Virus record (IMG/VR): IMGVR_UViG_2675903055_000001
Coordinates: 26,476 to 90,475 of that record
DNA: 64,000 nucleotides
Strand: one strand, 5' to 3'
From: a virus
Taxonomy: Duplodnaviria > Caudoviricetes
In this document: piece by piece, positions 7,919 through 43,966 of the stretch
Layout of the letters: every line of letters starts with the position of its first letter
How positions within the stretch are numbered: position 1 is the first letter of the stretch
Notes under the pieces: generated by a model
What the model saw: the letters and a program-made list of their open reading frames with translations, nothing else
Databases searched by the model: none
What the model was told of the DNA's origin: nothing
Made by a program: the position numbers and the translations under genes

Positions 7919-8725
7919 TTACTGGACGGGCGACGCATCGTGCTCGGCGATCGCCCGACGGAACAGGCGAAGCTGATCGCCCGGATGGCCTTGCGCGTAC
8001 TCCCGGTAGATGCGGTCCCACCGAGCCGCCTGCGGAGACAACTCGAACCGCTGCCCCCGGAAGACACTGATGATCTGACAGGAGCAGTGGTCGTGATACT
8101 TCGCCACCGACGCATCGCCGGAAAACCGGTCGTTGGCATCCCGACCGGCCGTGCCTGCGGACTTGTAGACCATCCCGCGTGAGGCCATCAAGCGGCAGAA
8201 CGCGCAAGCGCCAAGCGCTGCGGCCCGCGCGTAACCAACAGCCTCACGGTCCCGCTGCACAGCCTGCCGCGTCGTCTGGCGTCCCTGATCCAAGACGAGC
8301 TTTTCCACCACCGCAGCCGTCTTCTTCTCCGCCGCAGCCAGCCTCACCTCGACTGGCTGTGCCTGCGCCGCCGTGGTACGCGGATCGTCCGGGTCCCGGG
8401 GCCACAGGTCCTTGGTGGCCCATCGCAGTGACGCCTGCGTCTGCTCCTGCGGCGGGCTGTCCGCGAGCGGCACGGTGAACGCACTGGTGACGTCGGCCGC
8501 GGCTCGCTGCGCCTCGTACACCTCGGCAGCCAACTGCGCCGCCAAGTCGCCGTACTGGCGCACCACCGCGTCGACCGCCTCCATCCACGGCGGCAACGTC
8601 GCACCCATCCGCGCGGGCACGAGGAGTCTCCGCAGCCTGCCCAGATCCCTGCGCAGCAGCCGCACCAGCCCGGCAGCAGCCTGACGGTGACGGGCGCCGT
8701 CCGCGTCAGAAACTCTCCTCGCCAC
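7919..8725 (-). CDS. MuF-like minor capsid / capsid maturation protein
   Basis: GACAFCRLMASRG and YHDHCSC motifs; follows portal. Confidence 0.8.
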   Translation of the reverse strand: MARRVSDADGARHRQAAAGLVRLLRRDLGRLRRLLVPARMGATLPPWMEAVDAVVRQYGDLAAQLAAEVYEAQRAAADVTSAFTVPLADSPPQEQTQASLRWATKDLWPRDPDDPRTTAAQAQPVEVRLAAAEKKTAAVVEKLVLDQGRQTTRQAVQRDREAVGYARAAALGACAFCRLMASRGMVYKSAGTAGRDANDRFSGDASVAKYHDHCSCQIISVFRGQRFELSPQAARWDRIYREYAQGHPGDQLRLFRRAIAEHDASPVQ

Positions 8726-12690: not shown

Positions 12691-13329
12691 TCACATCAAC
12701 GAGGCGAGAACACCGGCCGCATCAGGCAGCTCGGCAAGCTCAAGAGGAGTGCCCGGAACCCGGTCACCCACGATCATGTAGCGGCGGTCCGAGTACACCT
12801 CAACCGCCACCTCACCGCGACGAATCCGGCGGCCAGCCGAGACCTGGCCGCGGAACCACAAGTGCAGACCCGTACCAGACCGACCACGCTCCATGTACGT
12901 CGCCGGCAGCCGGTCGATGATGGCCTGCGCCCACGACAGCACCCGGCCCTCCTCGACAGCGTGGTCGAGGTCGACGACGACAATCCCATCGCTGCCCGCC
13001 AGGACGAAGCCGACGCCCTCACCAGCCTGCGCCTGCACCGCAGTCGGAAAGTCCGACCACGACGACGGGTCATCCACTGACGCGAAACGACCATCCACCC
13101 GCAGCGGCACCTTCCGAGACGAGTACCGCACCCACCGCGGGCGCCCCGTCAACTCGGCTGGCACGCGAGCCACCTGCTCCGCCGCCACCCGCTGCTGCTG
13201 TACACGCCGCCGCTCGCGGTATGCGGCCTGCCTGCACCGCGACGAACAGAACCGCGCATCCGCCCGAGCCGTCAAGGGCATCGGCCCCGCGCAGCGCTCG
13301 CACTCGGTGCGGCAGGTCGTCGAGATCAT
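12691..13329 (-). CDS. Stand-alone AEP prim-pol-like domain with N-terminal C4 zinc finger
   Basis: VVVDLDH (DxD), SGTGLHLW (sxH), VEVY; CERC...CSSRC. Confidence 0.75.
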   Translation of the reverse strand: MISTTCRTECERCAGPMPLTARADARFCSSRCRQAAYRERRRVQQQRVAAEQVARVPAELTGRPRWVRYSSRKVPLRVDGRFASVDDPSSWSDFPTAVQAQAGEGVGFVLAGSDGIVVVDLDHAVEEGRVLSWAQAIIDRLPATYMERGRSGTGLHLWFRGQVSAGRRIRRGEVAVEVYSDRRYMIVGDRVPGTPLELAELPDAAGVLASLM

Positions 13330-13499
13330 GACCCAAGCCTAGAGGATGCGCGTTACGGCTGTAGCCCTTTGACCAGCACCGTAACCGTACCGAGACAGAT
13401 CACACGAGCAGGCGTTGACTAGACCTGTCAGCCATCCGTGCAGGTCGGCGGCCTAGGGAACCCGTACAGAGAGTCAGGTGCTATACGGCCCCGATGGCA

Positions 13500-13716
13500 A
13501 TGATCATGGGACCAAGATCATCCCCCCAGATGATCTTGAAACGGATGATCTTGGACCAAGATCAAGGATCAAGGAATCTTCTTGATCAACGATCAAGGTC
13601 AGGCTTGATCCACTTCGTCAGCAAGATCAACCCGCCATCGAAAGCGTCGCTAGCGATCTTCATCGCTTCGCTTTTCGATCTTCTTCAATCGATCTTCGCG
13701 AAAGATCAAAAGATCT
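13500..13716. repeat. AT-enriched cluster of 15 GATC-core repeats (WWGATC / GATCWW); probable packaging (cos/pac) region
   Basis: GATC at 13502, 13516, 13532, 13547, 13560, 13567, 13584, 13591, 13607, 13625, 13655, 13677, 13691, 13704, 13712; intergenic, upstream of terS. Confidence 0.85.
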
Positions 13717-20716: not shown

Positions 20717-20967
20717 GCTGCCGCCCTGGGGCTGGTGGTGTGGGCGATGGCGCGGACTTCGAGAGCGTCGGCTTCGAGGTCGAGGATTGCTGCGAGAGTG
20801 TCGAGGTCGCAGTCAGGGGCGTCGGCGAGGTTGCGGCTGCTCGACGCGATGGCCCGTAGGAGGGCGATGACGGTGTCGCAGCCGAGGTAGGGCTGCCCGT
20901 CGCTTCCAACTGCGAGGGGTAGTCCGGTGGCGACCGGGGGCACGGGCCCGTCCTGGTCGTCGTTCAT
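20713..20967 (-). CDS. Hypothetical protein (paralogue of 34618..34830)
   Basis: Shares ADALEVRAI and V(I/V)xLLRx(I/V)A with 34618..34830. Confidence 0.7.
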   Translation of the reverse strand: MNDDQDGPVPPVATGLPLAVGSDGQPYLGCDTVIALLRAIASSSRNLADAPDCDLDTLAAILDLEADALEVRAIAHTTSPRAAA

Positions 20968-21764
20968 GCCGCTGCCTTTTCGGTCTGCGCCGGGGTGAGC
21001 GTGGGCATGGCGGGGATGGTCTGGGCGAGCCAGCCGTCGGGCGCTGTCGTGAAGTGCGGGGCGGCTGTCGCTCGCCACCAGGAGCGGACCGCGGTGGTGG
21101 CGGACGGCTGGCCGGTGCGTCGGTCGACGTACTCGATGGTGCGCTCACGGCTGTGCCGGGTGACGAGCCGTCCGCGCTTGCAGCCGTCGGGGTATTCGTT
21201 CCAGTTGATCCCGGCTTCGGACCACAGGAGTTCCTGCATGCTGCCGCTGTTCACGCCGTGCAGGCGTTTGTGGGAGAAGTGGGCCTGCGCCGCCATCGAG
21301 ATGGAGTTGCGGACGGCGTCGCGCTGCCGCCACAGGAAGTAGTTCGCCACTTCGACCGGGTCGGGAATGGTGAACACGCGGGCGTCGAACAGTGCCCGCT
21401 TGCCAGGGCGCTGTTCGTTGAGGACCGCGGTGGCAAGGGCGGCGGCCATGGAGGTCTGCTTGGCAAGGATGCCACCGAACCACGGCTGGGTGGTGGGGGT
21501 GGCGAAGTCGGTGTAGAGGACGCTGATCTCGTCGGACTGGGTGTAGGCGAACACGCTGCCGGTGATCTCGGTGCAGAGTGCTTCGGCCACGGCGTCCATT
21601 GCAGCCATGAACTGGTCGTCGAAGGGGCGTTGGGCGCCGCGCAGGTAGGTGTGCGCAGCTCGAATGTCGACGCGTAGGAGAGTGTGGGTCCGGCGTGGAA
21701 GCACCGCGCGGGTGACGGCCTCGTAGTCCTTCATCCGGTCCCCGAGAGGGGTGTTGTCCTTCAC
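20964..21764 (-). CDS. thg1: tRNA(His) guanylyltransferase Thg1-like 3'-5' polymerase
   Basis: LGDRMKDYE, RVDxRxxHTY, YTQSDEIS, FDARVF, YFLWRQRDAVRNSI. Confidence 0.9.
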   Translation of the reverse strand: MKDNTPLGDRMKDYEAVTRAVLPRRTHTLLRVDIRAAHTYLRGAQRPFDDQFMAAMDAVAEALCTEITGSVFAYTQSDEISVLYTDFATPTTQPWFGGILAKQTSMAAALATAVLNEQRPGKRALFDARVFTIPDPVEVANYFLWRQRDAVRNSISMAAQAHFSHKRLHGVNSGSMQELLWSEAGINWNEYPDGCKRGRLVTRHSRERTIEYVDRRTGQPSATTAVRSWWRATAAPHFTTAPDGWLAQTIPAMPTLTPAQTEKAAA

Positions 21765-22222
21765 GGTGCCCACTCCTCACCCTTGTGGTCGGGGTGCCTG
21801 GCGAATGGACGGGCGAGGATTTCGAGGCGACGGTCGATGCGGGCGTCGCGTCCGCAGTCACAGGGGCCGCCGAGGCGGCTCTCGTCGCAGGTCTCTCCGC
21901 CGTCCCGTTCTTCGGTGGCCGCAGCACAGGTGTACCAGCAGTCTTCGACGACTGCGTGCCGTTCGGCGTCGAGGTCGGCTACGAGTGCGAGCTTGGCGTC
22001 GAGGTCGGCGATAACGGCGGTGGGATCGTGAGCGGCGAGGTGGTCGACGGTAGCCCGCAGTTGCCGGCCGCTGAGTGCGAACCCTTCGGCGACGGTGATG
22101 CCGTCGATGGCGATCACTTCGTCGTGTTCGGCGTTGGGCTGCCACGGTCCGGGGCTGGCGGCTAGAGCGAGCGCCCGCTGTTCGGCGTACCGGGCACGCA
22201 GGAAGTCGGCGATGTCGTTCAC
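21761..22222 (-). CDS. DUF6221-like protein
   Basis: DIADFLRARYAE, HLAAHDPTAVIADLDAK, ..HPDH..EW. Confidence 0.75.
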   Translation of the reverse strand: MNDIADFLRARYAEQRALALAASPGPWQPNAEHDEVIAIDGITVAEGFALSGRQLRATVDHLAAHDPTAVIADLDAKLALVADLDAERHAVVEDCWYTCAAATEERDGGETCDESRLGGPCDCGRDARIDRRLEILARPFARHPDHKGEEWAP

Positions 22223-24797: not shown

Positions 24798-25352
24798 ATG
24801 GTCAGGTCAGCGCCGTCGCCGGGGAGGACGACTGCGGCGAGCAGCGGCCGGGCGACGGTGGGTAACGCCACCAAACGGCGGTACAGGCCGAAGCACTCGT
24901 CCTGTTATCACGTCGGCTACTCGCTCACGTGCCGCGAGTACGACGACCTCCTGCGCCTCAGCAGGGGACGGTGCAAGATCTGCAAGGAAGCCGCTTCGCA
25001 TCTGTGCATCGACCACGATCACAAGCTGGGAACATGGGCGGTTCGCGGCCTCATATGCAACGCCTGCAATCTGGCCCTCAAGAAAGTCGACGCTGGGTGC
25101 GGGGAGAAGAGCCCGGCAGTCGCGAGGTACCTCGCGAACGCTTGGCACAGAAGGCAAGCGAGTAGTGCAGTCAAGGCCGCTCGTGTCCGGCCAGTCTCCG
25201 AATGCCCTGTGTGCGGGAAGCGGTCGTCGGTGAAGCGTGACGGCCGCCTCTACGAGCACTGGTCCCGTCTCCCAGGGCAGTACGAAACGCGCTGCACTGG
25301 CGTCCCTGACGCCAGGCTCCCGCAGCGTCCCGAACCTACCGAAGGGGCATGA
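24798..25352 (+). CDS. Endonuclease VII-type (His-Me finger) nuclease
   Basis: YSLTCREYDDL..CKIC..LCIDHDH..VRGLICNACN; GAGGAGG RBS. Confidence 0.85.
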   Translation: MVRSAPSPGRTTAASSGRATVGNATKRRYRPKHSSCYHVGYSLTCREYDDLLRLSRGRCKICKEAASHLCIDHDHKLGTWAVRGLICNACNLALKKVDAGCGEKSPAVARYLANAWHRRQASSAVKAARVRPVSECPVCGKRSSVKRDGRLYEHWSRLPGQYETRCTGVPDARLPQRPEPTEGA

Positions 25353-25744
25353 GCATGGACCGTGACCTGACCGACTTCTTGTGGCTACGCGTCACCGAAG
25401 ACCACGAGACCGCCCAGCGCCCGACCGACGCCCCGTGGGCCAAGCCAACCTGGGCCCTCCGGCGAGACGACGACGACGACGCTTACGTCGACCTCGGCAC
25501 CCAGCACCTGGACCGAGAGAGCAGCCTCAACGAGGACGAGCTGACCCACATCGCGCGGCACGATCCGACGCGGGCTTTCGCCGAGGTTGAGCTGTTGAAG
25601 TGGCTGCTCGCCGAGCACGAGCTGCGTGCCGATGGGGACGGAGGCTATGTGTGCGCGGTGGATGGTGAGGACTGCGGCACGCTGCGCCGCATGGCCGCCC
25701 TGTACGCGGATCACGAGGAGTACAGGCAGGAGTGGCGGCCGTAG
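25349..25744 (+). CDS. DUF6221-like protein (second copy)
   Basis: HIARHDPTRAFAEVE, LRRMAALYADHEEYRQEWRP. Confidence 0.8.
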   Translation: MSMDRDLTDFLWLRVTEDHETAQRPTDAPWAKPTWALRRDDDDDAYVDLGTQHLDRESSLNEDELTHIARHDPTRAFAEVELLKWLLAEHELRADGDGGYVCAVDGEDCGTLRRMAALYADHEEYRQEWRP

Positions 25745-26462: not shown

Positions 26463-27056
26463 TCAGTGCCAGCCGAGCCCGGTGTTGGAGAGCTGCGCGT
26501 TGCAGATGTTGTAGCCGCCGGAGGCGTGGGCCTTCTTCGTTTCGCCGTTGACGGTCACCGAGCAGTTGATGTCGCCGCCGCCTTGGAGTTGGGCGTTGAC
26601 GTGGTACCACAGGGCGTCGTCGTTGAACGGGAGTGTCTTCGTCATGGGCAGTCCGGAGCCTTGCCGACTGTCGGTGTCGGTGCCGTAGGTGATGTCGGCG
26701 CCGGCGGGGGCGCTGCCCCACACCTTGATGGTCACCGTCTTCGGCTTCGGCTTGGGCTCGGGCTTGGCGGCCGGCTTGGGCTTGGCGGAGGTCTCCTCGG
26801 CCTTCGGTGCTTCGTCGCCCGCGGGTTCGGCGTTCTCCTTCTCGGGCTTCGGCTTGGCGCTCGGCTCGGACGCGGTGTCCTTCTTGTCGGTGTCGCCGCC
26901 TCCGATGGCGGAGCCGATGCCGCCGAGGACGAGGACGCCGCCGATCACGCTGAGGACGATCAGGCCGGTGCGCTTCTTCTTGGGCGGCGGCTGGGGCTGC
27001 CACTGCTGCTGGAACGGGGGCTGCGGCTGGCCGGGGTACTGCTGGTGCGGGTTCAT
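26463..27056 (-). CDS. Membrane-anchored MmpS-like protein
   Basis: Pro/Gln N-terminus, one TM, K/P/E linker, ITYG...INCSVTVNG...ICNA. Confidence 0.8.
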   Translation of the reverse strand: MNPHQQYPGQPQPPFQQQWQPQPPPKKKRTGLIVLSVIGGVLVLGGIGSAIGGGDTDKKDTASEPSAKPKPEKENAEPAGDEAPKAEETSAKPKPAAKPEPKPKPKTVTIKVWGSAPAGADITYGTDTDSRQGSGLPMTKTLPFNDDALWYHVNAQLQGGGDINCSVTVNGETKKAHASGGYNICNAQLSNTGLGWH

Positions 27057-27149: not shown

Positions 27150-27245
27150 TCAGTTCATGTGCGGGCAGGCGCGGACCCACCAGCCGCAGCCGGGGCAGTA
27201 GGTGGGCGGGATGAGTCGGGTGGCCAGCGCGCGGATGGCGTGCAT
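27150..27245 (-). CDS. 31-aa Cys/His microprotein (not in ORF track)
   Basis: MHAIRALATRLIPPTYCPGCGWWVRACPHMN with CAGGAG RBS. Confidence 0.55.
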   Translation of the reverse strand: MHAIRALATRLIPPTYCPGCGWWVRACPHMN

Positions 27246-27329
27246 GATGTGGGTCTCCTGTCTCTCGTGTGGGATGGGTGGCCGCAGGGCCGGGATCGTG
27301 CAGCCACAGCCGGGCCCGGCCCTGCGGTG

Positions 27330-27548
27330 TCAGCGGCGGCGGGGCCGGTCGGCTGGGTTGATCTGCATGCCGAGGGCCTCACGCTGGCGCGGCTCCTCGG
27401 CGTGGAAGTCGGCCCAGGTGGCGCCGAGGTCGAATGCCCTCTGCTGCGCCTCTTCGACTGGAGGGTCGGGGAAGATCGTCGGCGGCCTGGTGAGGCTCAG
27501 CCGGATGGCCTCGGCGACGGCTTCCTTCATCTGCTGTTCCTGGTCCAC
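27330..27548 (-). CDS. Hypothetical protein
   Basis: VDQEQQMKEAVAEAIR..., GGAG RBS. Confidence 0.6.
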   Translation of the reverse strand: MDQEQQMKEAVAEAIRLSLTRPPTIFPDPPVEEAQQRAFDLGATWADFHAEEPRQREALGMQINPADRPRRR

Positions 27549-27562
27549 GGGTGTCTCCTTCG

Positions 27563-27799
27563 TCAGAGGTGGCGGATGATCCAGTCGAGGACGGCGATCC
27601 AGGCGAGGACGGCGAAGCCGCAGCCGGTGCGCCACGACAGCCGCTGGCGGACGCCTACGGTCTCGATGTGCTCGCCGTCGGGTCTGAGCCCGTGGTGGGC
27701 CAGCTGACGGTGACGGCCGCGGACGGCGCGCAGGGCGACGCGGGAGTGCACCGGTTCGGCGGTGGTGCCGCAGTCGTCGCACCGGTACTGGTAGGCCAT
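27563..27799 (-). CDS. Zn-ribbon plus C-terminal TM protein (plasmid/AICE spread-region type)
   Basis: YRCDDC..H..H, C-terminal hydrophobic helix. Confidence 0.7.
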   Translation of the reverse strand: MAYQYRCDDCGTTAEPVHSRVALRAVRGRHRQLAHHGLRPDGEHIETVGVRQRLSWRTGCGFAVLAWIAVLDWIIRHL

Positions 27800-27819
27800 C
27801 GGCGGGTCCTCTCGGGGGC

Positions 27820-27893
27820 GGTAGGCGGGTAGGTAGGAACGGGGTAGGCGGCGGGTAGGACGTGGGCTGACCTGCGGTTCCTACCGGGCTACC
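27820..27893. repeat. GGTAG(G) direct repeats (5) and inverted CTACC(GGG) (2)
   Basis: GGTAG at 27820, 27828, 27832, 27843, 27854; CTACC at 27881, 27889. Confidence 0.65.
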
Positions 27894-28611
27894 GGGCCGG
27901 GGGGTGGGGGCTGTTCGGGGTGTGGGGAGCGGGCGCTGGGCCGGGCTGTGGGTGGGGTGTGACGGGGGTGTAGGCGGGGCCCCGGTCGGGGCTGCCGGGC
28001 GGGCCGGGAGCGGGGGTGTCGGGGAGGTGCCCGAGCCCGTCCGGGAGGTCCCGGAGGAGGACCCCTTGGCGGTTGCGCTGACGGCCCCCCGCCGCCTTCA
28101 GGTTGAGTCCTTCGGTGACCGGGATGCCGGCCGCGTCGAGGGCCTGGCGGACGGTCTGTTTCGTGGCTCCGGGGAGGGCGTCGGCGATGGTGTCGAGGTG
28201 GGCGCCGCGCTGCCCGGTGTCGGCGGTGATCTCGCGGATGGCGAGGGCGACGATGTGCGCGGCCGGTGGCACGGCCTCGGCCGGCTGCTCCTCCCCCGGC
28301 TCGTCTTGATCGTTTCGGGGTGTGGGGGCGGGGGCCAGCGTCCATGCGGCGACGCACCAGGCCGCGGTCAGCGGCGTCATCATCGGCGGGTGCTGGTCGA
28401 CCAGGAGCACGATGCCGACCGCGCCCGCGGCTACCCCACCCAGGCGGGTCACGCTGCCCTGGGTGCCGTCGCCTGCGGCGACCCAGGCCGCGCCCCGTTC
28501 GAGCAGGGCGCGGCTGCCGGTGCACAGCGACGTAGCGAGGTGCCGGCCGGGGATGAAGGGGCGGGCGGCCTCCCGCGCTCGGGCCACTGGGCGGGGCTTC
28601 CGGTCGGGCAC
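27889..28611 (-). CDS. Membrane protein with C-terminal winged-helix-like domain and Pro-rich tail
   Basis: Two hydrophobic segments, then GAHLDTIADAL..TVRQALDAAGIPV..RQGV. Confidence 0.7.
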   Translation of the reverse strand: MPDRKPRPVARAREAARPFIPGRHLATSLCTGSRALLERGAAWVAAGDGTQGSVTRLGGVAAGAVGIVLLVDQHPPMMTPLTAAWCVAAWTLAPAPTPRNDQDEPGEEQPAEAVPPAAHIVALAIREITADTGQRGAHLDTIADALPGATKQTVRQALDAAGIPVTEGLNLKAAGGRQRNRQGVLLRDLPDGLGHLPDTPAPGPPGSPDRGPAYTPVTPHPQPGPAPAPHTPNSPHPPAR

Positions 28612-28612
28612 G

Positions 28613-29089
28613 TCAGACCCCCAGGACCTTCGCGAAGGAGGCGACGACGGAGGCGAGGACGCCCCAGATGCCGCCCGCACGGCCGGCGACGTAGGCCATC
28701 ACGAAGCCCCAGATCGCGACCTGCTTCAGCGTGAGCTTCTTCCAGTACAGGACGGCGGCGATGCAGCAGGCCGCGGCGCCCATGCCGACGTTGCCGAGGG
28801 GGCCGCCGCTGCCGCCGACGCCGAGCGCGGCCAGGAGGGTGCCGAGCAGGTCGGCGGGGGTGGACCAGATGCCGCCCGCGGCGGCGTAGAGGGTGGCCGC
28901 GAGCGCGCCGAGGAACAGCGCGAGCGTCCACGGCAACGGCCGGCCCTTGCCCGCGGCCTTGACGCCGAGGACGAGTACGACGGTGACGACCAGGGCGGCG
29001 CCGCCGGCGCCGAGATGGCCGAGGATCTCGCCCTGGCTGATGCCCGGCGACGGGGGCGCCATCGGCGTGGTGGATACGGCGGTGGACAT
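28613..29089 (-). CDS. Four-TM Gly/Ala-rich membrane protein (Spd-like)
   Basis: 158 aa, almost entirely hydrophobic. Confidence 0.75.
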   Translation of the reverse strand: MSTAVSTTPMAPPSPGISQGEILGHLGAGGAALVVTVVLVLGVKAAGKGRPLPWTLALFLGALAATLYAAAGGIWSTPADLLGTLLAALGVGGSGGPLGNVGMGAAACCIAAVLYWKKLTLKQVAIWGFVMAYVAGRAGGIWGVLASVVASFAKVLGV

Positions 29090-29101
29090 GACTTCTCCTG
29101 G

Positions 29102-29755
29102 TCAGAGGGAGGCGGGCGCGTACAGGCCCAAGGCGAGGACGGCAGAGGCGAGGGGGGCGCGGCAGATCCACGGGAGCGGGCCCCACCAGCCGCGGGTGCG
29201 GCGGTCGAGGACCTGGCCGAGGAGGACGACGATGCCGCTGCCGAGGAGCAGTGCGGTGGTGACGCTGTAGTCGCGGCCGCAGTCGGTGATCCAGCCTCCG
29301 AACAGGTCGACCAGGCCAAAGCTCCAGCCCAACGTGGCGGCGCTGCCGTTGTAGAGCAGGACCCAGGTGCGGTGCTCGACGTGCAGGTGCTGGCGGACCT
29401 GCTCGGCCCGCTGGTCGACGGCGCCCGTCTTGATGGTGGGCAGCCGCCGCCGGGGCTCGGGCGCCGGCTCCGGGGTGTCGGGGTCGGCCGTCAGCTCCTC
29501 GACGGGCTGGGGCTGGGCGCTCGTCTGCGGGCGCGGCACGGGCAGCTCGGCCTCGGGGGGCTCCGGGGGCCTGGTCCACCAGTCGGCGGCGGGCCCGGTG
29601 TCGGTGCCGTCGGCGTACAGCCGGTCCCACCAGTCGTCGTCGTGGCGGTCGGCTGGCTCGGGGGCGGGCTTGCGCCACGGCGGGAGGTTGTCGGCCCCGG
29701 CCGGCGCGGGCGGCATCTCGGGCGCGAGCGGGGGCTGCTGTCCGTCGCTGCTCAC
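29102..29755 (-). CDS. Membrane protein, acidic Pro-rich N-terminus and 3 C-terminal TM segments
   Basis: DDDWWDRLY; C-terminal hydrophobic helices. Confidence 0.7.
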   Translation of the reverse strand: MSSDGQQPPLAPEMPPAPAGADNLPPWRKPAPEPADRHDDDWWDRLYADGTDTGPAADWWTRPPEPPEAELPVPRPQTSAQPQPVEELTADPDTPEPAPEPRRRLPTIKTGAVDQRAEQVRQHLHVEHRTWVLLYNGSAATLGWSFGLVDLFGGWITDCGRDYSVTTALLLGSGIVVLLGQVLDRRTRGWWGPLPWICRAPLASAVLALGLYAPASL

Positions 29756-30078
29756 GAGTGGTCTCCGCACTGGTGGTCGCGGCCGTCGGCGAGCGCCGCG
29801 GCGAAGCCGGATTCGGGCCGGTAGCCGAGGGCGAGGCGGTGGCAGGGGCAGCGCCAGGCATAGCCGTGCACGGTGTACTCGCCCTGCGGGGACAGCACTT
29901 CGTAGTCGGCGCGGTGGACGGTGACGCGGGTGTCGGAGCGGCTGGTGACGGTGGTGATGACGCCGGACATGGCCGGCGCTGTCGACGTGCCGGTCGGGGT
30001 GGGCTCGGCTGCCTGCGTGGTGCTGGCCGTGGTCCAGCCCGGGGGCAGCGTGCCGGGGGCGGCGGGGGGGTCGGTCAT
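29752..30078 (-). CDS. Hypothetical protein with CPC..H.C motif
   Basis: Stop/start overlaps in operon. Confidence 0.6.
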   Translation of the reverse strand: MTDPPAAPGTLPPGWTTASTTQAAEPTPTGTSTAPAMSGVITTVTSRSDTRVTVHRADYEVLSPQGEYTVHGYAWRCPCHRLALGYRPESGFAAALADGRDHQCGDHS

Positions 30079-30083
30079 GACGA

Positions 30084-31601
30084 TCACTGGGTCTCCTGGG
30101 CGTCGAGGTGGCGGCGGATGGCGGACGCCTTGGACTGGCCGACACCGAGCCCCGACTTGAGGGCGCGGATGCCCGCGGGCTTGCCGTGGGTACGGCGGTG
30201 CTCGGCGTCGAGTACGCGCGCCCGGTCGAGGAGGGCGTCCGTACCTGGGGGTGTACTCGGCGTACTCGGCTCGGGTACGGGCGCGTACTCGGCGGCCGGA
30301 GCCGGGGGCTCGTCGGGGTGCTCCGCCGGTGCGTCGTGGGTGGTGCTCTCGGGGAGCCGGGCGTGTACCTGGGTACGGGTACGGTCCGCGGCGAGTACGG
30401 GCTCCGGGTCCTGTACCTCGGGGTGTACCTCGGTGTCGGGTACGTCGGCGGGTACGGGTGTCTGTGCTGGTGGGGCCGCGGGTACGGCCTGTACCTCGGG
30501 TGCGGGTACGGCCTCGGGTGCGGGCGGTTCGACCGGGTCGGGTACGGCGGGGGTGGCCGTGTCCAGGCGTGGCGGATTGCCCGCCCGGGTGGCCATCCGC
30601 ACCAGCGTCTCGGTGACGGGTACGCCGTACCCGGTGCACAGCGACGCGAGTCCGGCCGGGGTGCGATCCGGGTGCGCGGCGGCCACCCGGCGTACCGCAT
30701 CGAACCGGTCGAGGCGCTTGAGTTCGGCCGTGGTGATGCCGTGCGGGGTACGCAGGTACGGGGCGGGTACAGCCTCGACGGTCCACAGCGACGGCAGGGG
30801 TACGTCCTTCAGCGCGGCGGCACCGCGCCGTGCGGCGAGGAGCTGCATGAGCTGGTGCCGCTGCTGACCGTTGACACCGACCTGCGCGCGGGCAACCGCG
30901 GCGGCGAGCCGCTTCTTCCCCCACGGGCCAAGGCGGTCGCGGGAGGCGAGGCGGACGGCGCGGGCGGTGGCACGGTCGCGGGTGATCTGCTCGGCGTCCC
31001 GGTCCCGGGTCGCGAGCCCCGCGTAGGACAGGACCCGCTCGCGCAACTCGCGTCCGACGACGGCCAGCAGCCCGGAGGCGAGGGCCTGCGGGCGGGCGAT
31101 GCGAATCTCCAGCCCCATGGCGAGGTGCCACAGGATGCCGGCCATGACGGGCCCGATGACGGCGCGGACCGTGCCGCCGACGAGTCCGGACTCGGTGAGG
31201 GCGGGGATGACCTGGACGCCGGTGATGACCCACACGAGGACGCCGGGCGTTCCCGAGGTGCCGGCCGTGGTGTCGGTGGTGGTGGCGCGTTTGTGGGCTC
31301 GGGCGAGGAGCGCGCAGGCGAGGAGCGCGATCTCCCCTGCGGCGAAGAAGAACAGCCGCTCGTTCTGGCTGTGCATGCCGAGCCGGTGCGCGGCGAACCG
31401 CCAGCTCGTGTCCGCGGTGTAGCCGGTGCAGGCGGCGGCGCCGATCGACGCGACGACGACGGACGCGGAGGGCCGGGCGGCGGCTCGCAGGCCGCGGACG
31501 ATGAGCCACCCGGCGAGGACGAGCAGCCCGCAGACACCGACCGCGAGGACCGCAGCCGGGAGCGGGTTGGCCTGTGCCCAGTGGGCGGCGGGTGCGGTCA
31601 T
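30084..31601 (-). CDS. SpdB2/DUF2637-like membrane protein with C-terminal HTH
   Basis: 4-5 N-terminal TM helices, basic middle, Pro/Val/Glu linker, terminal GIRALKSGLGVGQSKASAIR HTH. Confidence 0.65.
   Translation of the reverse strand: MTAPAAHWAQANPLPAAVLAVGVCGLLVLAGWLIVRGLRAAARPSASVVVASIGAAACTGYTADTSWRFAAHRLGMHSQNERLFFFAAGEIALLACALLARAHKRATTTDTTAGTSGTPGVLVWVITGVQVIPALTESGLVGGTVRAVIGPVMAGILWHLAMGLEIRIARPQALASGLLAVVGRELRERVLSYAGLATRDRDAEQITRDRATARAVRLASRDRLGPWGKKRLAAAVARAQVGVNGQQRHQLMQLLAARRGAAALKDVPLPSLWTVEAVPAPYLRTPHGITTAELKRLDRFDAVRRVAAAHPDRTPAGLASLCTGYGVPVTETLVRMATRAGNPPRLDTATPAVPDPVEPPAPEAVPAPEVQAVPAAPPAQTPVPADVPDTEVHPEVQDPEPVLAADRTRTQVHARLPESTTHDAPAEHPDEPPAPAAEYAPVPEPSTPSTPPGTDALLDRARVLDAEHRRTHGKPAGIRALKSGLGVGQSKASAIRRHLDAQETQ
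30188..30805. repeat. In-gene GTAC-core iteron array (26 copies; main unit GGGTACGG)
   Basis: Hand count of 26 GTAC in ~615 bp; none seen in the 5' half of the same gene. Confidence 0.85.
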
Positions 31602-31795
31602 CGTCGTCGTGCTCCCCTGCGGGATCGTCGGATGCGGTGGTGGTGTGCGCGCCAGGAGGCGACCGCGGCGGCGCCCATGACGAGGACGCCGGGCCTGAAG
31701 TCGCCGAGCGCGGCGAGGAGGGCGAGGGCGGTGAACGTCCAGCGGGCGAGCGGCCCGCACAGTTCGTCCCGCAGCCGGGGGCGTAGGCGGGTCAC
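31598..31795 (-). CDS. Small two-TM membrane protein
   Basis: WTFTALALLAALG..GVLVMGAAAVASW. Confidence 0.65.
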   Translation of the reverse strand: MTRLRPRLRDELCGPLARWTFTALALLAALGDFRPGVLVMGAAAVASWRAHHHRIRRSRRGARRR

Positions 31796-31944
31796 CGGGG
31801 CTCCGTCCGGGTGCCGAGCCGCTCCAGCATGTGGGCGAGGGCGATGGCGTCGCAGAGGCTGATGAGCGGTCCGTGGAGGCGCCATGTGAGGAGGTGCCAC
31901 AGGAGTGCGGGGATGGCGGTGGTGGTGGGGTGTGGAAGGTTCAC
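31792..31944 (-). CDS. 50-aa hypothetical protein (not in ORF track)
   Basis: VNLPHPTTTAIPALLWHLLTWRLHG...; GGAG RBS, GTGA overlap. Confidence 0.55.
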   Translation of the reverse strand: MNLPHPTTTAIPALLWHLLTWRLHGPLISLCDAIALAHMLERLGTRTEPR

Positions 31945-31956
31945 GGTCGGCTCCGA

Positions 31957-31993
31957 GGCCGGGCCCGCCCTAGGGGTGGAGGCGGGCCCGGCC
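31957..31993. terminator. 13-bp stem-loop inside the spd-like operon
   Basis: GGCCGGGCCCGCC / GGCGGGCCCGGCC. Confidence 0.5.
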
Positions 31994-32003
31994 GGTTCGG
32001 GGG

Positions 32004-32204
32004 TTAGCTGCGTTGGCTGTTGCGTCGGATGTCGGCGTGCCGTTGGGCGTCGTCCCAGTCCTGGCCGGCGCGGAGCGCACGGTCCGCGCCGCCACCGGGC
32101 TTGCGGTGGTCGGCGCGGCGCCTGGCGGAGGCCCGGTCGGAGGCGGACTGCTTGCCGCTGTACTTGGTGTCGGCGAGTTCGCGGTCACTGCGGAAGAGAG
32201 CCAT
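32004..32204 (-). CDS. Small basic protein typical of Streptomyces mobile-element transfer regions
   Basis: MALFRSDRELADTKYSGKQSASDRASARRR..GQDWDD (family recalled, not searched). Confidence 0.7.
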   Translation of the reverse strand: MALFRSDRELADTKYSGKQSASDRASARRRADHRKPGGGADRALRAGQDWDDAQRHADIRRNSQRS

Positions 32205-32377
32205 CAGCCGGCCCGCCCCACGTGCTGACGCTGCTGCCCGTCGGTGCGGGGGTGGGCGCAGCAGTTGCGCCACGTTTGCCGGACGATGCCGTCTCCGGAG
32301 GTGTCCTCGACATAGCCGCCGCTGCCGTCGCACTGCTGCTCTTGGGTACCGGGCTCGGCCGGCTCGACGGCGGTCAC
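32204..32377 (-). CDS. 57-aa hypothetical protein
   Basis: CDGSGG..CC.H; overlaps both neighbours. Confidence 0.55.
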   Translation of the reverse strand: MTAVEPAEPGTQEQQCDGSGGYVEDTSGDGIVRQTWRNCCAHPRTDGQQRQHVGRAG

Positions 32378-32682
32378 AGCGTCACTCCCTCGTCGAGGGC
32401 GATCTGGATGCGGCGGTGGAGCAGGCGCGGCGGGGTCGGCTCGTGCGGGTTGCCGATCACCTTGAGGGCGGCCTCCACGTCGTCGCTCACGGCGGGCCCG
32501 TTGCTGCCGTGGATGCGGCGGGCGTGGAGGCCGAGGAGCAGCGGCACGTCGAGAACGCCGGGCCCACCGGCGCGGCTGATCGTGCCGTCGAGCCCGGTGA
32601 GGGTAGCGGTGAGGAGCTGGACGACGCGTTGCGTCGGACTGTCGGGGTCGGCGTGGGTGCCGATAGCATCCGGCATGGTCAT
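32374..32682 (-). CDS. Hypothetical protein, first gene of the spd-like operon
   Basis: AGGAGG RBS, MTMPDAIG... Confidence 0.7.
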   Translation of the reverse strand: MTMPDAIGTHADPDSPTQRVVQLLTATLTGLDGTISRAGGPGVLDVPLLLGLHARRIHGSNGPAVSDDVEAALKVIGNPHEPTPPRLLHRRIQIALDEGVTL

Positions 32683-32716
32683 TCCTCCTGGTAGCGCAGG
32701 TAGGGGTGACTCCCGC

Positions 32717-32822
32717 GCCCGTGTGCGACCACGGGCCGGGGCTTGACGGTGCCCGGTGTGCGACCACCGGGCACCGTCGGTTTGGTGCGGCCCTGGTTCG
32801 TGTGCGACCACGAACCAGGGCC
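32717..32822 (-). repeat. Three tandem hairpins with identical GTG-TGCGAC-CAC apex but different stems
   Basis: GTGTGCGACCAC at 32721, 32756, 32800; stems of 7, 14 and 14 bp. Confidence 0.9.
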
Positions 32823-32846
32823 TTGTGCATTGGCAGCGTGGGCTGC

Positions 32847-32883
32847 TTGTCACCAATGTATGGGCACCCATACAATTAGGCAA
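32847..32883. promoter_or_regulatory. Overlapping divergent sigma70-type promoters sharing a palindromic operator
   Basis: Plus: TTGTCA(32847)-18-TACAAT(32871). Minus: TTGCCT(32883)-17-TACATT(32860). Operator TGTATGGG-CA-CCCATACA at 32857-74. Confidence 0.85.
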
Positions 32884-32908
32884 GCGGCTCCCGAAGATGA
32901 GGAACGGG

Positions 32909-33220
32909 ATGACCGAAGAACCCATCGACCAGGAGGCGCAGCGTGTGTTCGACGCTCTCGACGAAGTGGAAGCGATGACCGACCCGCTGGCCCGGGCGCG
33001 CGTGATCGGCTTGCTCCTGAAGGACCAAGCGAAGCGCAACAAGAAGTTCCACGAGTACCGGCGGCAGGTCGTCCTCGAACTGCGCGAGCAGAAGGTGCCC
33101 TACCGCAAGATCGCCGAACAGTTGGGCGTGTCACTCGGCACGGTCCAAGACATCGAGCGTGGGGCAGGCCGCTGGACACAACGCCCGAGGAAGGACTCGC
33201 CGCAGGATGCACCCGAGTAG
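32909..33220 (+). CDS. HTH repressor of the spd-like module
   Basis: VPYRKIAEQLGVSLGTVQDIERG HTH; divergent from the operon. Confidence 0.85.
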   Translation: MTEEPIDQEAQRVFDALDEVEAMTDPLARARVIGLLLKDQAKRNKKFHEYRRQVVLELREQKVPYRKIAEQLGVSLGTVQDIERGAGRWTQRPRKDSPQDAPE

Positions 33221-33262: not shown

Positions 33263-33799
33263 ATGAGCGCGTCAAGCGACTCCGCCGCCAAGCCCCGCCG
33301 TGCCGCTGTGTACCGCCTGTGGGACTCCGAGGGCAACCTCTTGTACATCGGCTCGGCCTACGACCCGGACCACCGTTGCCAGGCCCACAGGCAACAACCT
33401 TGGTGGCCGGCAGTCACACGCCGCACCGAAGAGTGGCACGCGGGGCGCCGCAACGCATACATCGCTGAGCTCGAAGCCATAGCGAAAGAACGTCCCACGC
33501 ACAACTTGATGGGCACGCTGGAGTACCAGACGCCCAGCACCGAAAAGGTTCAGCGCCGGAACGAGCTCGCACCTCTCCGAGGGCGTCTCACCCGAGAAGC
33601 TGACCTGCTGGCAGCGAGGGTGACTCGCGAGTCGCGAGCCGCGGGCGCCTCCAGTTACGAAGCAGAGCGGGCTGGCAAGCTGGCAGCGATCGACTTTCTG
33701 GAAGACACGGGCCTATTCGATGGAGCGGTCAAATGGCGGCGAAGGCAGGTGGCTTACGATGCGCGCCGCCACGAAGAGGAGCAGCGTGATGACAGCTGA
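33263..33799 (+). CDS. GIY-YIG nuclease family protein
   Basis: AVYRLWD..LLYIGSA..R..H..PWW..E..AI..P.HN. Confidence 0.85.
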   Translation: MSASSDSAAKPRRAAVYRLWDSEGNLLYIGSAYDPDHRCQAHRQQPWWPAVTRRTEEWHAGRRNAYIAELEAIAKERPTHNLMGTLEYQTPSTEKVQRRNELAPLRGRLTREADLLAARVTRESRAAGASSYEAERAGKLAAIDFLEDTGLFDGAVKWRRRQVAYDARRHEEEQRDDS

Positions 33800-36727: not shown

Positions 36728-36755
36728 CAGGTTCCCTTCAGCGTCGTGTGGGTTG

Positions 36756-36829
36756 TGCCCGAGGCCGGATTCGAACCGGCACTGAGCCGCTTTTAAGGCG
36801 GGCGCGTCTACCTGTTGCGCGACTCGGGC
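36756..36829 (-). tRNA. tRNA-Leu(UAA), bldA-type anticodon, short variable loop
   Basis: Acceptor GCCCGAG/CTCGGGC + A73; Leu-type D-loop (A14,A15,G18G19,U20,A20a,G21,A22); loop CTTAAAA (anticodon 36793-95); T-arm GCCGG-TTCGAAT-CCGGC; 74 nt, CCA not encoded. Confidence 0.85.
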
Positions 36830-36837
36830 GAAGGCGG

Positions 36838-37953
36838 TCAGGAGAAGAGGGCGAGTTGTTCGCGCTCGGCGCCCTGCGGAAGCACGACGGGGACCGGGTC
36901 CGCCTCCGCGCCCGGCCCGCTGCCGTCGTCGGCTGGGGTGTCGGTGCCGCCGTCCGTGCCGAGGTTGACGATGCGGGCCTGGGCAGGGCGCAGCCGCGCG
37001 TACTCGGCGCGGCTGACCTTCCCCGCGAGGAGACTGTCGCCGACGCTGATGCGAGGCATCGGCCGGTGCGGTATCGCGTCCAGGCGCAGCGGCCCGGGTA
37101 GGGCGCCGGCCTCGTGGAGTAGGTGGGCGAGGTAGACGGTGACGCGGAGTCGGCACACGGCCTCGGTGACCGGGTCGAGTTCCATGCCGTCGACGCCGGC
37201 GAGGATGCGGCGGGCCGCCGCGGCCGGGGGTATGGGTGTCCAGCCGGTGACGCCGTCCATGTGCATCTGCCGCGGGGCGAGTTGGCCGGTGGTGTACAGC
37301 TCCCAGAGCATGTCGATGGCGCGGATGAGGAAGTGGCCGGTTCCGCAGGTGGGGTCGATCAGGCGCAGCGTCTCGTTGCGGAACTCCGCGGCGGCGGGGA
37401 TGAGGGTGCGGTCGAGGATGCCGTCGGCGAGCCACCAGGGGGATTGGGCGAGGGCGTGGGCGAGGCGGCGTTCGTCGGTGACGAGTTGGAGGAGGTCGCC
37501 GAGGATCCAGCCGGTGATCGTGCCCGGCCCGCTCTCGACGGGGTAGGCGAGGGTGGGGGCGTCTTCGGCCCACCAGTGGAGTAGGCGGCTGCCGGCGGTC
37601 TCACTGGGTGAGGCGTGGCGGACGGGGTTGTCGTAGGCGGGGTCGAGGAGCGTCCAGGCGCAGGGGTGGACGGCGGTGTCGGCGACGGCGTAGGTGAGCC
37701 AGGCCAGGTCGGTGCCGCCCTGGGCGAGGAACTGCCGCCGTGCGGGCTGCGCGTCGGCGTTCAGGCGGCCGTCGATGAGGTGGTGGTCGGCTGCCCAGGC
37801 GTGGATGCAGGTCATGTACACCCAGCCGGCTGCGGTGCGGTGGGCGTCTTTGCCGGGGATGCTGTTGGCGAGCTGCTCGATCTGGCGCTGGAGTGCGCGG
37901 ATGAGGGGCCGGCTGGGTTCGGGGCGGGTCTGGGTGAGTGGGGTGCTGGTCAT
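36838..37953 (-). CDS. Truncated PglX/BREX-like adenine methyltransferase homologue (SAM-binding half only)
   Basis: LGDLLQ..ALAQSP..ILDRTL.PA..EF..LRLIDPTCGTGHF, GMELDP, VGDSLL; no NPPY/DPPY; ends EQLALFS. Confidence 0.8.
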   Translation of the reverse strand: MTSTPLTQTRPEPSRPLIRALQRQIEQLANSIPGKDAHRTAAGWVYMTCIHAWAADHHLIDGRLNADAQPARRQFLAQGGTDLAWLTYAVADTAVHPCAWTLLDPAYDNPVRHASPSETAGSRLLHWWAEDAPTLAYPVESGPGTITGWILGDLLQLVTDERRLAHALAQSPWWLADGILDRTLIPAAAEFRNETLRLIDPTCGTGHFLIRAIDMLWELYTTGQLAPRQMHMDGVTGWTPIPPAAAARRILAGVDGMELDPVTEAVCRLRVTVYLAHLLHEAGALPGPLRLDAIPHRPMPRISVGDSLLAGKVSRAEYARLRPAQARIVNLGTDGGTDTPADDGSGPGAEADPVPVVLPQGAEREQLALFS

Positions 37954-38399
37954 GCGGCGTGCTCCTGTCGCCCGGTGGTGATGTGGGCTGGGGTGATGAG
38001 GCCAGCGGCCATGGCGAGGGCGACGGCGTGGGTGGCGGTGCGCGCGCCGAGCCGGTGGTGGGCGGTGCGCAGAAGCCAGCGGACCGTGTCGAGGGAGGTG
38101 CCCATCTGGTCGGCGGCGTGCTGCGCGGTGTAGCCGAGGGCGGTCCAGAGCAGGGCTTCGAGCTGCCGGCCGGTCAGGGGGTTGTCGAGGGGGGCGTCGA
38201 GGAGTCCGGTGCGGGTGGCGAGGTAGACGGCGTGGGGCATGCTGACCGCGCCGAGTTTGCGCATGACGCGGGTGGCTACGTTCGCCACGCTCTTGGTGGT
38301 GAGGTTGATGTGGTGGCCGATCTCGCTGTAGGTGTCGCCGGCCGCGGTTCCGCGGAGGACTTCGAGTTCCGTGTCTGTGAGTCCCCGCGGCCCGGTCAC
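37950..38399 (-). CDS. Tandem LuxR-type HTH regulator
   Basis: LTDTELEVL..KLGAVSMPHAV and LTGRQLEAL..RLGARTATHAV. Confidence 0.85.
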   Translation of the reverse strand: MTGPRGLTDTELEVLRGTAAGDTYSEIGHHINLTTKSVANVATRVMRKLGAVSMPHAVYLATRTGLLDAPLDNPLTGRQLEALLWTALGYTAQHAADQMGTSLDTVRWLLRTAHHRLGARTATHAVALAMAAGLITPAHITTGRQEHAA

Positions 38400-42795: not shown

Positions 42796-43097
42796 GCGGT
42801 GACCTCGGCTTCCTGTACGCGCTGCGGGTGGGGTTCGGGGATCGCTCGGCCGCCGACCCGGCAGGGGGTGCCGGGCGCCACCTGGCAGGCGGGGCAGACG
42901 GCGGTGGCGATGACCCACGCGGTGATGCGGGCGGGGTGGACGGGCGCGTCGGTGATGCGGCGCCGTCCGCTGCGGGTGGTGCAGGGTGCGCGGTCGTGGG
43001 CGCCGCAGTGGGGGCAGGTGACGGCGAGGGCGGGGTGCTGTCCGGTGCGGGAGATGGCGCGGATGTCGTCGGGCATGGGGACGCTGTAGCGACTCAC
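42792..43097 (-). CDS. Double zinc-finger protein
   Basis: CPHC..C..H and CPAC..C..H. Confidence 0.7.
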   Translation of the reverse strand: MSRYSVPMPDDIRAISRTGQHPALAVTCPHCGAHDRAPCTTRSGRRRITDAPVHPARITAWVIATAVCPACQVAPGTPCRVGGRAIPEPHPQRVQEAEVTA

Positions 43098-43966
43098 GCT
43101 GCACGCTCCAGTCGGTCTTCGACCGGTAGGTCGAGGAGGGAGAGCTGCCGGGGGGCGGTCATGCCCTTCTCGATGGCGGCGAGGACGCCTTCGCGCCAGG
43201 CGAGGGCGTAGCGCAGGCAGTTCGCTTCGTTCTTGTGCGGGCCGCGGGAACGCGGAAGCCGGAAGTCGCAGCCGTCGCCGGGGGTGTGTCGGCCCTGGGC
43301 GGACCAGGCCATCGAGTCGGCTGTGCCGAGCAGGTGCGCGACGCGCCGGAGCCCCTCCGTCTTGAAGCCGAAGCCGTGCGCCCGGCCCGGGCCGACGATG
43401 CCCGCGACGGTGTGGATGACCTCCGCGGCGAGCGGGGTGTCCTGAATGCGGCACACGCTCCCGACACCCACCAGCGGCTCGCGAGTGAGGTCGACGCCGG
43501 CCCGCTCGTAGAGGGTGGCGCACTGCTCGTAGGCGGCCGGCCGGTCACCCTGCAGCACGGGGATGATCCGCACCGGGCAGTTCAGCGCGCGGAGCTCGCA
43601 AAAGTTCGCCACGGTCCGCCGCTGGTGCTCGGCCACGCTCAGGCGGGTGCCGGGGGCGTGCTTGCCGCCGGGCATGGGGCCGCCGTTGATGATGACGTCC
43701 TCGCACATCCAGTCCTGCGGCGCGGCCCACTCCAAGCGGCCGATGTGCTCCGCGTACCGGCGGATCTGTTCCACGTACTGGCGGGGGCTGGGTCCGCTGC
43801 CCCAGGTGCCGTGTTCGGACAGTTGAGTGAATCCGCCGGAGTCCAGCGCCCACGGGCCGCGGGCTTCGGGTAGGCGCCGTATGCCGCGCAGAGTTGTGTC
43901 GGAGACGAACAGCGGCACGTCGGTGTGTGCCATGAAGTGCGGCTTGGCGCCGAGGTAGAACTTCAT
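43094..43966 (-). CDS. dpdA: DpdA-like 7-deazaguanine DNA transglycosylase (TGT fold)
   Basis: ALDSGGF, AAPQDWMCE, IPVLQG, VGVGSVC, HGFG, ADSMAWS; C-terminal RQLSLL. Confidence 0.8.
   Translation of the reverse strand: MKFYLGAKPHFMAHTDVPLFVSDTTLRGIRRLPEARGPWALDSGGFTQLSEHGTWGSGPSPRQYVEQIRRYAEHIGRLEWAAPQDWMCEDVIINGGPMPGGKHAPGTRLSVAEHQRRTVANFCELRALNCPVRIIPVLQGDRPAAYEQCATLYERAGVDLTREPLVGVGSVCRIQDTPLAAEVIHTVAGIVGPGRAHGFGFKTEGLRRVAHLLGTADSMAWSAQGRHTPGDGCDFRLPRSRGPHKNEANCLRYALAWREGVLAAIEKGMTAPRQLSLLDLPVEDRLERAA

Follow-up and report, generated by a model that had tools for sequence, protein, structure and literature searches.

The movement of DNA between the compartments of the Streptomyces mycelium is partly understood, and of the conjugation apparatus involved, the Spd proteins are the part about which least is known. 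SpdB2 of plasmid pSVH1 is a pore-forming, oligomerising membrane protein that binds double-stranded DNA (dsDNA), and spreading of pSVH1 requires TraB (Thoma et al. 2015, PMC4447253). Phage homologues of SpdB2 were proposed to help spread phage DNA (Thoma et al. 2015, PMC4447253), and that article, with reference to Smith 1999 and Van Dessel 2005, places putative homologues on two actinophages, phiC31 and VWB. Because it was published there, the idea of Spd-type spread of phage DNA is not new; phage use of this route is thus an existing suggestion, of which no test was found in the literature. Here we describe an operon of mostly membrane-protein genes in a tailed prophage, contained in a stretch of 64,000 nucleotides (positions 26,476 to 90,475 of IMG/VR record IMGVR_UViG_2675903055_000001, corresponding to C31:246416-310415 of the host assembly), which is referred to below as the window. 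The module is found in prophages of Streptomyces and in small plasmids alike, and we tentatively favor the reading, at a probability of roughly 0.45, that it encodes a membrane-anchored DNA-binding complex that would hold or distribute the dsDNA of its element at the hyphal membrane or septum. Three of its aspects were not found described in the literature: a multi-gene operon with direct plasmid homologues, the TraB-less state of these genes on plasmids and their breadth in prophages.

The relationship to plasmids resides in a block of three consecutive genes encoding proteins of 217, 158 and 240 amino acids (aa). In a blastn search against plasmids, region 27716-29360 matches a dozen small Streptomyces plasmids, and all three products have colinear homologues in pNKL and pSNA1 at 39-52% aa identity (E 1e-9 to 5e-28), which makes them homologous to genes of a plasmid spd operon. 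In plasmids of the pSNA1/pNKL type, as well as in contig L047, the block follows a gene for a protein with a weak DUF2637 match and a helix-turn-helix (HTH) domain and an open reading frame (ORF) of about 50 aa, the whole operon being divergent from a GntR regulator; the block also occurs under a divergent GntR regulator in other small plasmids. This layout is that of the Streptomyces tra/spd operon, and pSNA1 genes are referred to as tra and spd genes (PMC3212956). The prophage module shares with these rolling-circle replicating (RCR) plasmids the three colinear genes, a preceding transmembrane (TM) and HTH protein with a small ORF, a divergent repressor and the predominance of membrane products, its 505-aa and 111-aa ORFs occupying the slot held in the plasmids by the DUF2637(weak)-HTH protein and the small ORF. 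It differs in that its regulator, while similarly divergent in position, is of the HTH_23 type instead of a GntR-type TraR/KorA repressor, in that its large TM-HTH protein is not recognisably homologous to the plasmid protein, and in its extra small leader genes, three hairpins, GTAC array and tailed-prophage replicon. As an observation on the plasmids themselves, the small Streptomyces rolling-circle plasmids L001 (pSNA1), L002 (pNKL), L023, L024 and L047 share the GntR-controlled operon of DUF2637 and three membrane-block genes; in L001, L002, L023 and L024 no FtsK-like TraB was detected at E <= 1, and L023 and L024 carry a relaxase in its place.

The module encodes no recognisable DNA motor. 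No Walker A motif is present in the module, and no FtsK/SpoIIIE domain (PF01580) was found anywhere on contig C31, so that the combination of TraB with spd genes that characterises a tra/spd system is missing here. Nor was an FtsK domain detected at E <= 1 in any of the five block-sharing plasmids, namely pSNA1, pNKL, pSITFR-21c and two NBC plasmids, in a search that recovered both of its positive controls, pIJ101 Tra and one plasmid TraB. Contig L047 lay outside this search, and its sole large ORF looks Rep-like; a 566-aa protein of an S. virginiae plasmid, considered as a TraB candidate, was rejected because its Pfam assignment is the Rep_1 replication protein. In 15 other genomes, 18 chromosomal loci with homologues are all more than 100 kb distant from any FtsK domain, and no TraB-like match was obtained on 71 viral contigs. 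A preliminary description of this DNA, made from the letters alone, had correctly noted the missing Walker A/FtsK domain and had proposed that the phage captured the Spd part of a transfer operon without its TraB. The prophage does lack TraB and its block is homologous to a plasmid operon, yet the wording misleads: since the five block-sharing plasmids are also without an FtsK domain, the prophage did not lose TraB, and comparison of these sequences indicates that the gene set normally lives without it and is no phage truncation. TraB-less plasmids with the same genes raise the question of what the "spread" genes do alone. Elsewhere in the host genome, AICE-type (actinomycete integrative and conjugative element) FtsK/TraB and DUF2637 genes are present on other contigs (C22:204773, C12:499, C32, C10, C24 and C9), and help in trans is therefore possible.

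The largest product, a 505-aa protein, consists in its AlphaFold2 (AF2) model of a helical membrane domain (aa 1-265), an HTH-like domain (291-338), a disordered Pro-rich linker (345-450) and a C-terminal HTH (454-504); confidence, expressed as the predicted local distance difference test (pLDDT), exceeds 90 in helices 13-161. With its multi-pass membrane N-domain and C-terminal HTH, its membership in an operon of small membrane proteins and the divergent repressor, it has the architecture of an SpdB2-type protein. Like pSVH1 SpdB2 and pIJ101 SpdB, it combines a multi-helix membrane N-domain, a Pro-rich linker and a C-terminal HTH at the same operon position; unlike them, it gives no hidden Markov model (HMM) or profile match, has an extra internal HTH-like domain and has no encoded TraB partner. 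Its N-domain belongs to a family of 418 clusters at 50% identity (more than 900 matches) that no Pfam model covers. The nearest named ESM Atlas clusters of the membrane domain are DUF2637 (feature similarity 0.95), SpdB_N, HTH_SpdB_C and a viral DUF2637+Lsr2 cluster, and distant relatives directly adjoin FtsK-type TraB genes on plasmids. The second DNA-binding candidate is the 240-aa product of the block, in whose model TM helices at 52-92 are followed by a winged helix of H-b-H-H-b-b topology at 116-186 (pLDDT about 90); its matches in the PDB by Foldseek are all non-significant (E 0.24-1.1), and almost all are winged-helix or other HTH proteins (ROK, MarR, ArsR, Fur, TubR and ORC). In a separate group of relatives sharing the N-domain only, encoded on chromosomes of other Streptomyces species (L033, L034, L036 and L039), a MobA/VirD2-type relaxase of 574-763 aa is encoded 2-3 kb downstream, which suggests that these loci are integrated mobilisable elements distinct from AICEs.

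Within the 505-aa gene lies an array of 26 GTAC tetranucleotides (30190-30803), the densest such cluster of a genome whose mean is 3.1 per kb, which bears out the internal iteron array noted earlier. The sites, mostly CGGGTAC on the + strand and hence GTACCCG on the coding strand, fall in the part that encodes the disordered Pro-rich linker and the C-terminal HTH. In codons 266-505, GTAC is used at 26 of the 30 dipeptides able to carry it (16/17 in phase 0, 7/10 in phase 1 and 3/3 in phase 2), the corresponding share being 0/14 across codons 1-265 and 15% for the remaining genes in the window. Valine is encoded by GTA in 16 of 22 codons of the array part versus 3.3% elsewhere in the window, and the rare codons CGT and AGT are chosen such that RT and ST dipeptides carry GTAC. 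The use of rare GTA, CGT and AGT codons in all three phases rules out the array as a by-product of protein composition, and a translational effect of the rare GTA codon is unlikely, given that a third of the sites occupy other phases and that a tRNA-Val(UAC) is encoded by the host. The GTAC cluster that ranks second in density in this genome (C28:55188-55750) served as a negative control: it lies in a gene for a Tyr-rich membrane protein with PYG repeats, and the TAC codons for Tyr account for it completely. Relatives whose proteins are no more than about 55% identical also have the array. Of 37 full-length relatives encoded on IMG/VR contigs, 23 carry it, at a median of 27.7 per kb compared with 3.7 in the flanks; across relatives the consensus is GTACCCG, phase 0 accounting for 66% of sites and phases 1 and 2 for 17% each. 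Because relatives sharing only the N-terminal membrane domain are mostly without it, the array travels with the C-terminal HTH cassette. Judged from codon usage, it reflects selection acting on nucleic acid (DNA or possibly RNA) and not on protein. No published description of an in-gene GTAC array was found, in a literature search aimed at Spd proteins and phages and not at the array.

Arrays of 8-bp repeats, the clt loci, are reportedly located in the 3' end of traB on Streptomyces plasmids, and the known TraB/clt recognition sequence is GACCCGGA. The GTAC array resembles clt loci in that short repeats are densely packed into the 3' coding portion of a gene related to transfer; it differs in its GTAC(CCG) motif with a palindromic core, in the lack of a TraB and in being a candidate site. 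Were the array to act as a clt-like locus, the module could turn prophage or plasmid DNA into a substrate of a TraB supplied by a co-resident AICE or plasmid. The AICE-type TraB and DUF2637 genes elsewhere in the genome and an array that occupies the 3' half of a gene of the transfer type, much as clt loci do the end of traB, are in keeping with such mobilisation, which we nonetheless regard as very unlikely: GTACCCG is unrelated to GACCCGGA, no precedent was found for a phage genome of 50-60 kb moved by a foreign TraB, and many module-bearing relatives are without the array. A doubtful alternative dispenses with TraB altogether. It envisages a system of prophages and plasmids in which the SpdB-like protein binds the array in its own gene as a centromere-like site and, with three partners, tethers the replicon at septa and passes DNA between compartments; if this were true, a temperate phage could colonise the mycelium without virions.

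The module is widespread. Homologues of the 505-aa protein occur in at least 61 of 200 sampled Streptomyces species, roughly a third, and on 73 IMG/VR contigs of 13-86 kb. Wherever the context is readable, they precede by a few kb the terminase and portal genes, which are of various types, and are accompanied by a divergent HTH regulator, so that the synteny sought in other Streptomyces prophages does exist. The 217-aa block protein has 62 relatives, many on contigs of 10-25 kb, with a plasmid context in L047. In prophage L046 the module is near-identical, five genes having 88-95% identity and the homologue of the 217-aa protein 74%; its large slot holds an unrelated TM-linker-HTH protein together with a NERD protein and is without the GTAC array, and this slot is therefore exchangeable. 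Isolated phage genomes yielded by tblastn only a weak match, in the plasmid-phage ZL12, and a scan of genome_contigs gave a single locus. The module resembles the SpdB2 homologues of phiC31 and VWB in being a plasmid spread-type membrane function of temperate Streptomyces phages; the literature on those mentions single genes, whereas here a regulated multi-gene operon has direct plasmid homologues. In phiC31, the module proteins, including the 505-aa protein, have no match at E <= 0.1 (tblastn), and Pfam DUF2637 has none at E <= 1 in a six-frame search.

A mechanism consistent with the favored reading can be outlined. The divergent HTH regulator would bind the TGTATGG-type palindrome overlapping both promoters and keep the operon off. 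Upon derepression, the SpdB-like 505-aa protein would insert in the membrane with the 217-aa protein, the four-TM 158-aa protein and the TM and winged-helix 240-aa protein; the HTH and winged-helix domains would bind DNA, for which the approximately 26 GTAC(CCG) motifs in the 505-aa gene are the favored candidate cis site. A motor might be supplied from elsewhere, for example by a resident AICE TraB or by replication or packaging forces, or none might be needed for tethering. The module offers a widespread test case, comprising a defined operon, repressor and operator candidates, two membrane proteins that may bind DNA and an array that may act in cis.

Several observations weigh against this reading. 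No demonstrated function was found in the literature for the pSNA1 or pNKL genes. DUF2637 (PF10935) does not match the 505-aa protein at E <= 0.1, is matched by 0 of 101 members of its family at E <= 0.01 and was not found at E <= 1 in a six-frame search of the contig that holds the window. With thin reference profiles, hhalign gave the 505-aa protein a probability of 16% against four DUF2637 proteins, 0.8% against pIJ101 SpdB and 0.1% against the DUF2637-like protein of L047, values under which a distant kinship could have escaped notice. The module proteins show no homology to pIJ101 SpdA, SpdB or KilB by HMM, BLAST or hhalign, a comparison that among characterised Spd proteins covered those of pIJ101. 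When the PDB was searched by Foldseek with the model of the 505-aa protein, no solved structure like the membrane domain was returned, and a phmmer search of PDB sequences with the last 68 aa of the protein returned nothing. Many relatives, among them the closest module, that of L046, have no GTAC array, which is therefore not essential to the module. Furthermore, pSVH1 spreading needs TraB, which is found neither here nor in the block plasmids, and classical spreading therefore cannot be assumed, and an integrated prophage has no need of partition. Because the HMM and hhalign comparisons with DUF2637 and SpdB are negative, we call the 505-aa protein SpdB-like in architecture and context, not a demonstrated member, language-model features being all that points to DUF2637/SpdB. 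The preliminary description of a plasmid-spread-like operon accordingly holds for the three colinear genes that match pSNA1-type plasmid operons, and could not be upheld by HMM or profile methods for homology to SpdB/DUF2637 as such.

Database searches reveal little about the remaining products. Against Pfam, NCBIfam, PHROGs and PADLOC, the module proteins match little besides HTH models, a weak Mycobact_memb and two PHROGs of no assigned function. One further PHROG match, of the probable last gene product to a family of the Sie (superinfection exclusion) type, is not significant at E 0.009. It bears on an exclusion function, by which membrane proteins made in the lysogen would block DNA of other phages or conjugative elements in the manner of Sie proteins and plasmid entry exclusion. 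Such a function would work without a motor, would suit many small membrane proteins with their own repressor set apart from the surrounding phage operons, and would benefit plasmids and prophages alike, both of which gain from keeping competitors out. We consider it unlikely: ten module proteins gave nothing below E 0.009 against the PADLOC anti-phage defence models, the two predicted membrane-tethered DNA-binding proteins and the in-gene GTAC array are left unexplained, and a repressor-controlled, normally off operon is ill-suited to constitutive exclusion in lysogens.

The control region lies between the operon and its regulator, which matches HTH_23 and sigma-70 r4-like models and not GntR; relatives of the regulator hold the same divergent position in L012, L013, L025 and L046. 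A promoter-like site on the + strand (TTGTCA-18-TACAAT, 32847-32876, 10/12) and a leftward one read by eye (TTGCCT-17-TACATT) both overlap the palindrome TGTATGGGCACCCATACA, which is likely the operator. Its TGTATGG half-site recurs beside related regulators in plasmid pSITFR-21c (L025) and in prophage L046, good comparative support for this candidate. The leader carries three hairpins with unrelated, perfect stems of 7, 14 and 14 bp and a fold z-score of -7.4, a set that a genome-wide search found to be unique in the genome. The hairpins match no Rfam family and are not conserved in related modules, L046 (first gene 94% identical) having a single different hairpin, and for lack of conservation no specific function is assigned to them. 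Regulator, overlapping promoters with a common operator and hairpin leader had all been anticipated in the preliminary description; the GGTAG repeats that it placed at the terminus are real, and their position is internal, in an 89-nt gap (27800-27888, - strand) upstream of the zinc-ribbon-like gene 27563-27799 that holds CCTACC five times and CCCGGTAG twice.

A divergent repressor facing a membrane operon resembles the kil-kor logic of plasmids, and the module might, as unregulated tra/spd (kil) genes do in plasmids, perturb the envelope by growth arrest or permeabilisation, here in lytic growth, or aid lysis, its regulator having the kor function. SpdB3 is toxic and SpdB2 pore-forming (PMC4447253), the four-TM 158-aa protein is of holin size, and the module, which separates the early/replication genes of the prophage from its late region, has the orientation of the phage lytic genes and is directly upstream of the late region. 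The retention of the same genes by multicopy RCR plasmids without host lysis, the lack of an adjacent endolysin, and the HTH and winged-helix domains and GTAC array that this would leave unexplained make such a role distinctly unlikely.

Genes were called by third-position GC (GC3) frame analysis, chosen because ORF lists are uninformative at this GC content. The leftward run extends from 32682 to 26463 on the - strand and comprises 13-14 mostly overlapping genes, six junctions having overlaps of 1-4 nt. This agrees with the run of about 13 mostly coupled genes described before; its extent was put at about 5.5 kb, and the module in fact continues to 26463. Hydrophobic helices are predicted in seven products (from sequence hydrophobicity, and from AF2 models for the 505-aa and 240-aa proteins), in line with the at least six membrane-protein genes expected, and the AF2 models uphold the proposed pairing of TM helices with a C-terminal HTH or winged helix in the 505-aa and 240-aa proteins. 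In L011 and L012, a hairpin resembling that of the gap at 31957-31993 immediately precedes the gene of the 505-aa homologue, and a homologue of the probable last gene product holds the equivalent relative position in L011. The features are collected in Table 1.

Table 1. Coordinates (in the window) of features of the module and of the surrounding prophage
Feature	Position	Strand	Evidence or remark
Divergent HTH regulator, likely start ATG 32897, 107 aa	32756/32897-33220	+	HTH_23 E 1.4e-6
Face-to-face promoter region with palindrome TGTATGGGCACCCATACA (32858-32875), likely operator	32847-32884		
Three leader hairpins, identical apex GTG-TGCGAC-CAC (RNA GUG-GUCGCA-CAC)	32716-32822	-	
First operon gene, 102 aa, soluble, no assigned family	32374-32682	-	GC3 frame; 94% identical homologue at same place in L046
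Small coupled gene, 57-aa Cys-rich product	32204-32377	-	GC3 frame; no family match
Small coupled gene, 66-aa basic product	32004-32204	-	GC3 frame; 94% identical in L046; no family match
GC-rich hairpin GGCCGGGCCCGCC/GGCGGGCCCGGCC	31957-31993	-	Gap 3' of small leader genes; two small ORFs and 505-aa gene lie downstream
Small ORF, 50 aa, weakly supported call	31792-31944	-	Frame plot and sequence
Small hydrophobic ORF, 65 aa, overlapping its neighbor, weakly supported call	31598-31795	-	Frame plot and sequence
505-aa membrane and HTH protein	30084-31601	-	AF2 mean pLDDT 80
111-aa Cys/His-containing protein, translationally coupled	29752-30087	-	42% homologue in L046; small ORF in same slot in pSNA1, L047
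217-aa protein, C-terminal TM helices, block gene 1	29102-29755	-	pNKL E 5e-28, pSNA1 E 2e-26 (tblastn)
158-aa four-TM protein, block gene 2	28613-29089	-	pNKL 52% identity, E 4e-26; phrog_38677 E 8e-13; also in L025, L046
240-aa protein, two TM helices and winged helix, block gene 3	27889-28611	-	pNKL E 2e-28, pSNA1 E 4e-17; AF2
78-aa protein, N-terminal CxxC zinc-ribbon-like motif, C-terminal TM helix	27563-27799	-	phrog_32136 E 1.3e-9; 95% identical in L046
72-aa soluble protein	27330-27548	-	GC3 frame; no family match
Possible 31-codon ORF	within 27150-27329	-	GC3 frame analysis
197-aa single-pass membrane protein, Pro/Lys-rich spacer, Mycobact_memb-like ectodomain; probable last gene	26463-27056	-	PF05423 E 2.2e-5
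GT4 glycosyltransferase adjoining capsid gene	5183-6217	-	
Major capsid	6217-7086		
SPP1-type portal	8706-10148		
Large terminase	10192-11931		
Thg1-like enzyme (Thg1-like tRNA-His guanylyltransferase)	20964-21773	-	
tRNA-Leu(UAA)	36755-36829	-	
LuxR-type regulator	37950-38399		
DpdA (7-deazaguanine DNA modification)	43094-43966	-	

The window lies inside a tailed prophage, nearly all of whose genes run leftward, in a Streptomyces-type genome of 7.18 Mb in 34 contigs with about 70% GC. The operon is flanked by genes on the + strand: on its right the HTH regulator (32897-33220), followed by a gene with a GIY-YIG nuclease domain (33263-33799, +), and on its left a DUF6221 gene (25349-25744). DUF6221 genes recur beside the module on the strand opposite the operon, here on the + strand, in L046 at 5938-6348 and 13305-13697 and in L012 at 8372-8773. 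The tRNA-Leu of the prophage has the UAA anticodon of the bldA type, which reads the TTA codon, rare in Streptomyces.

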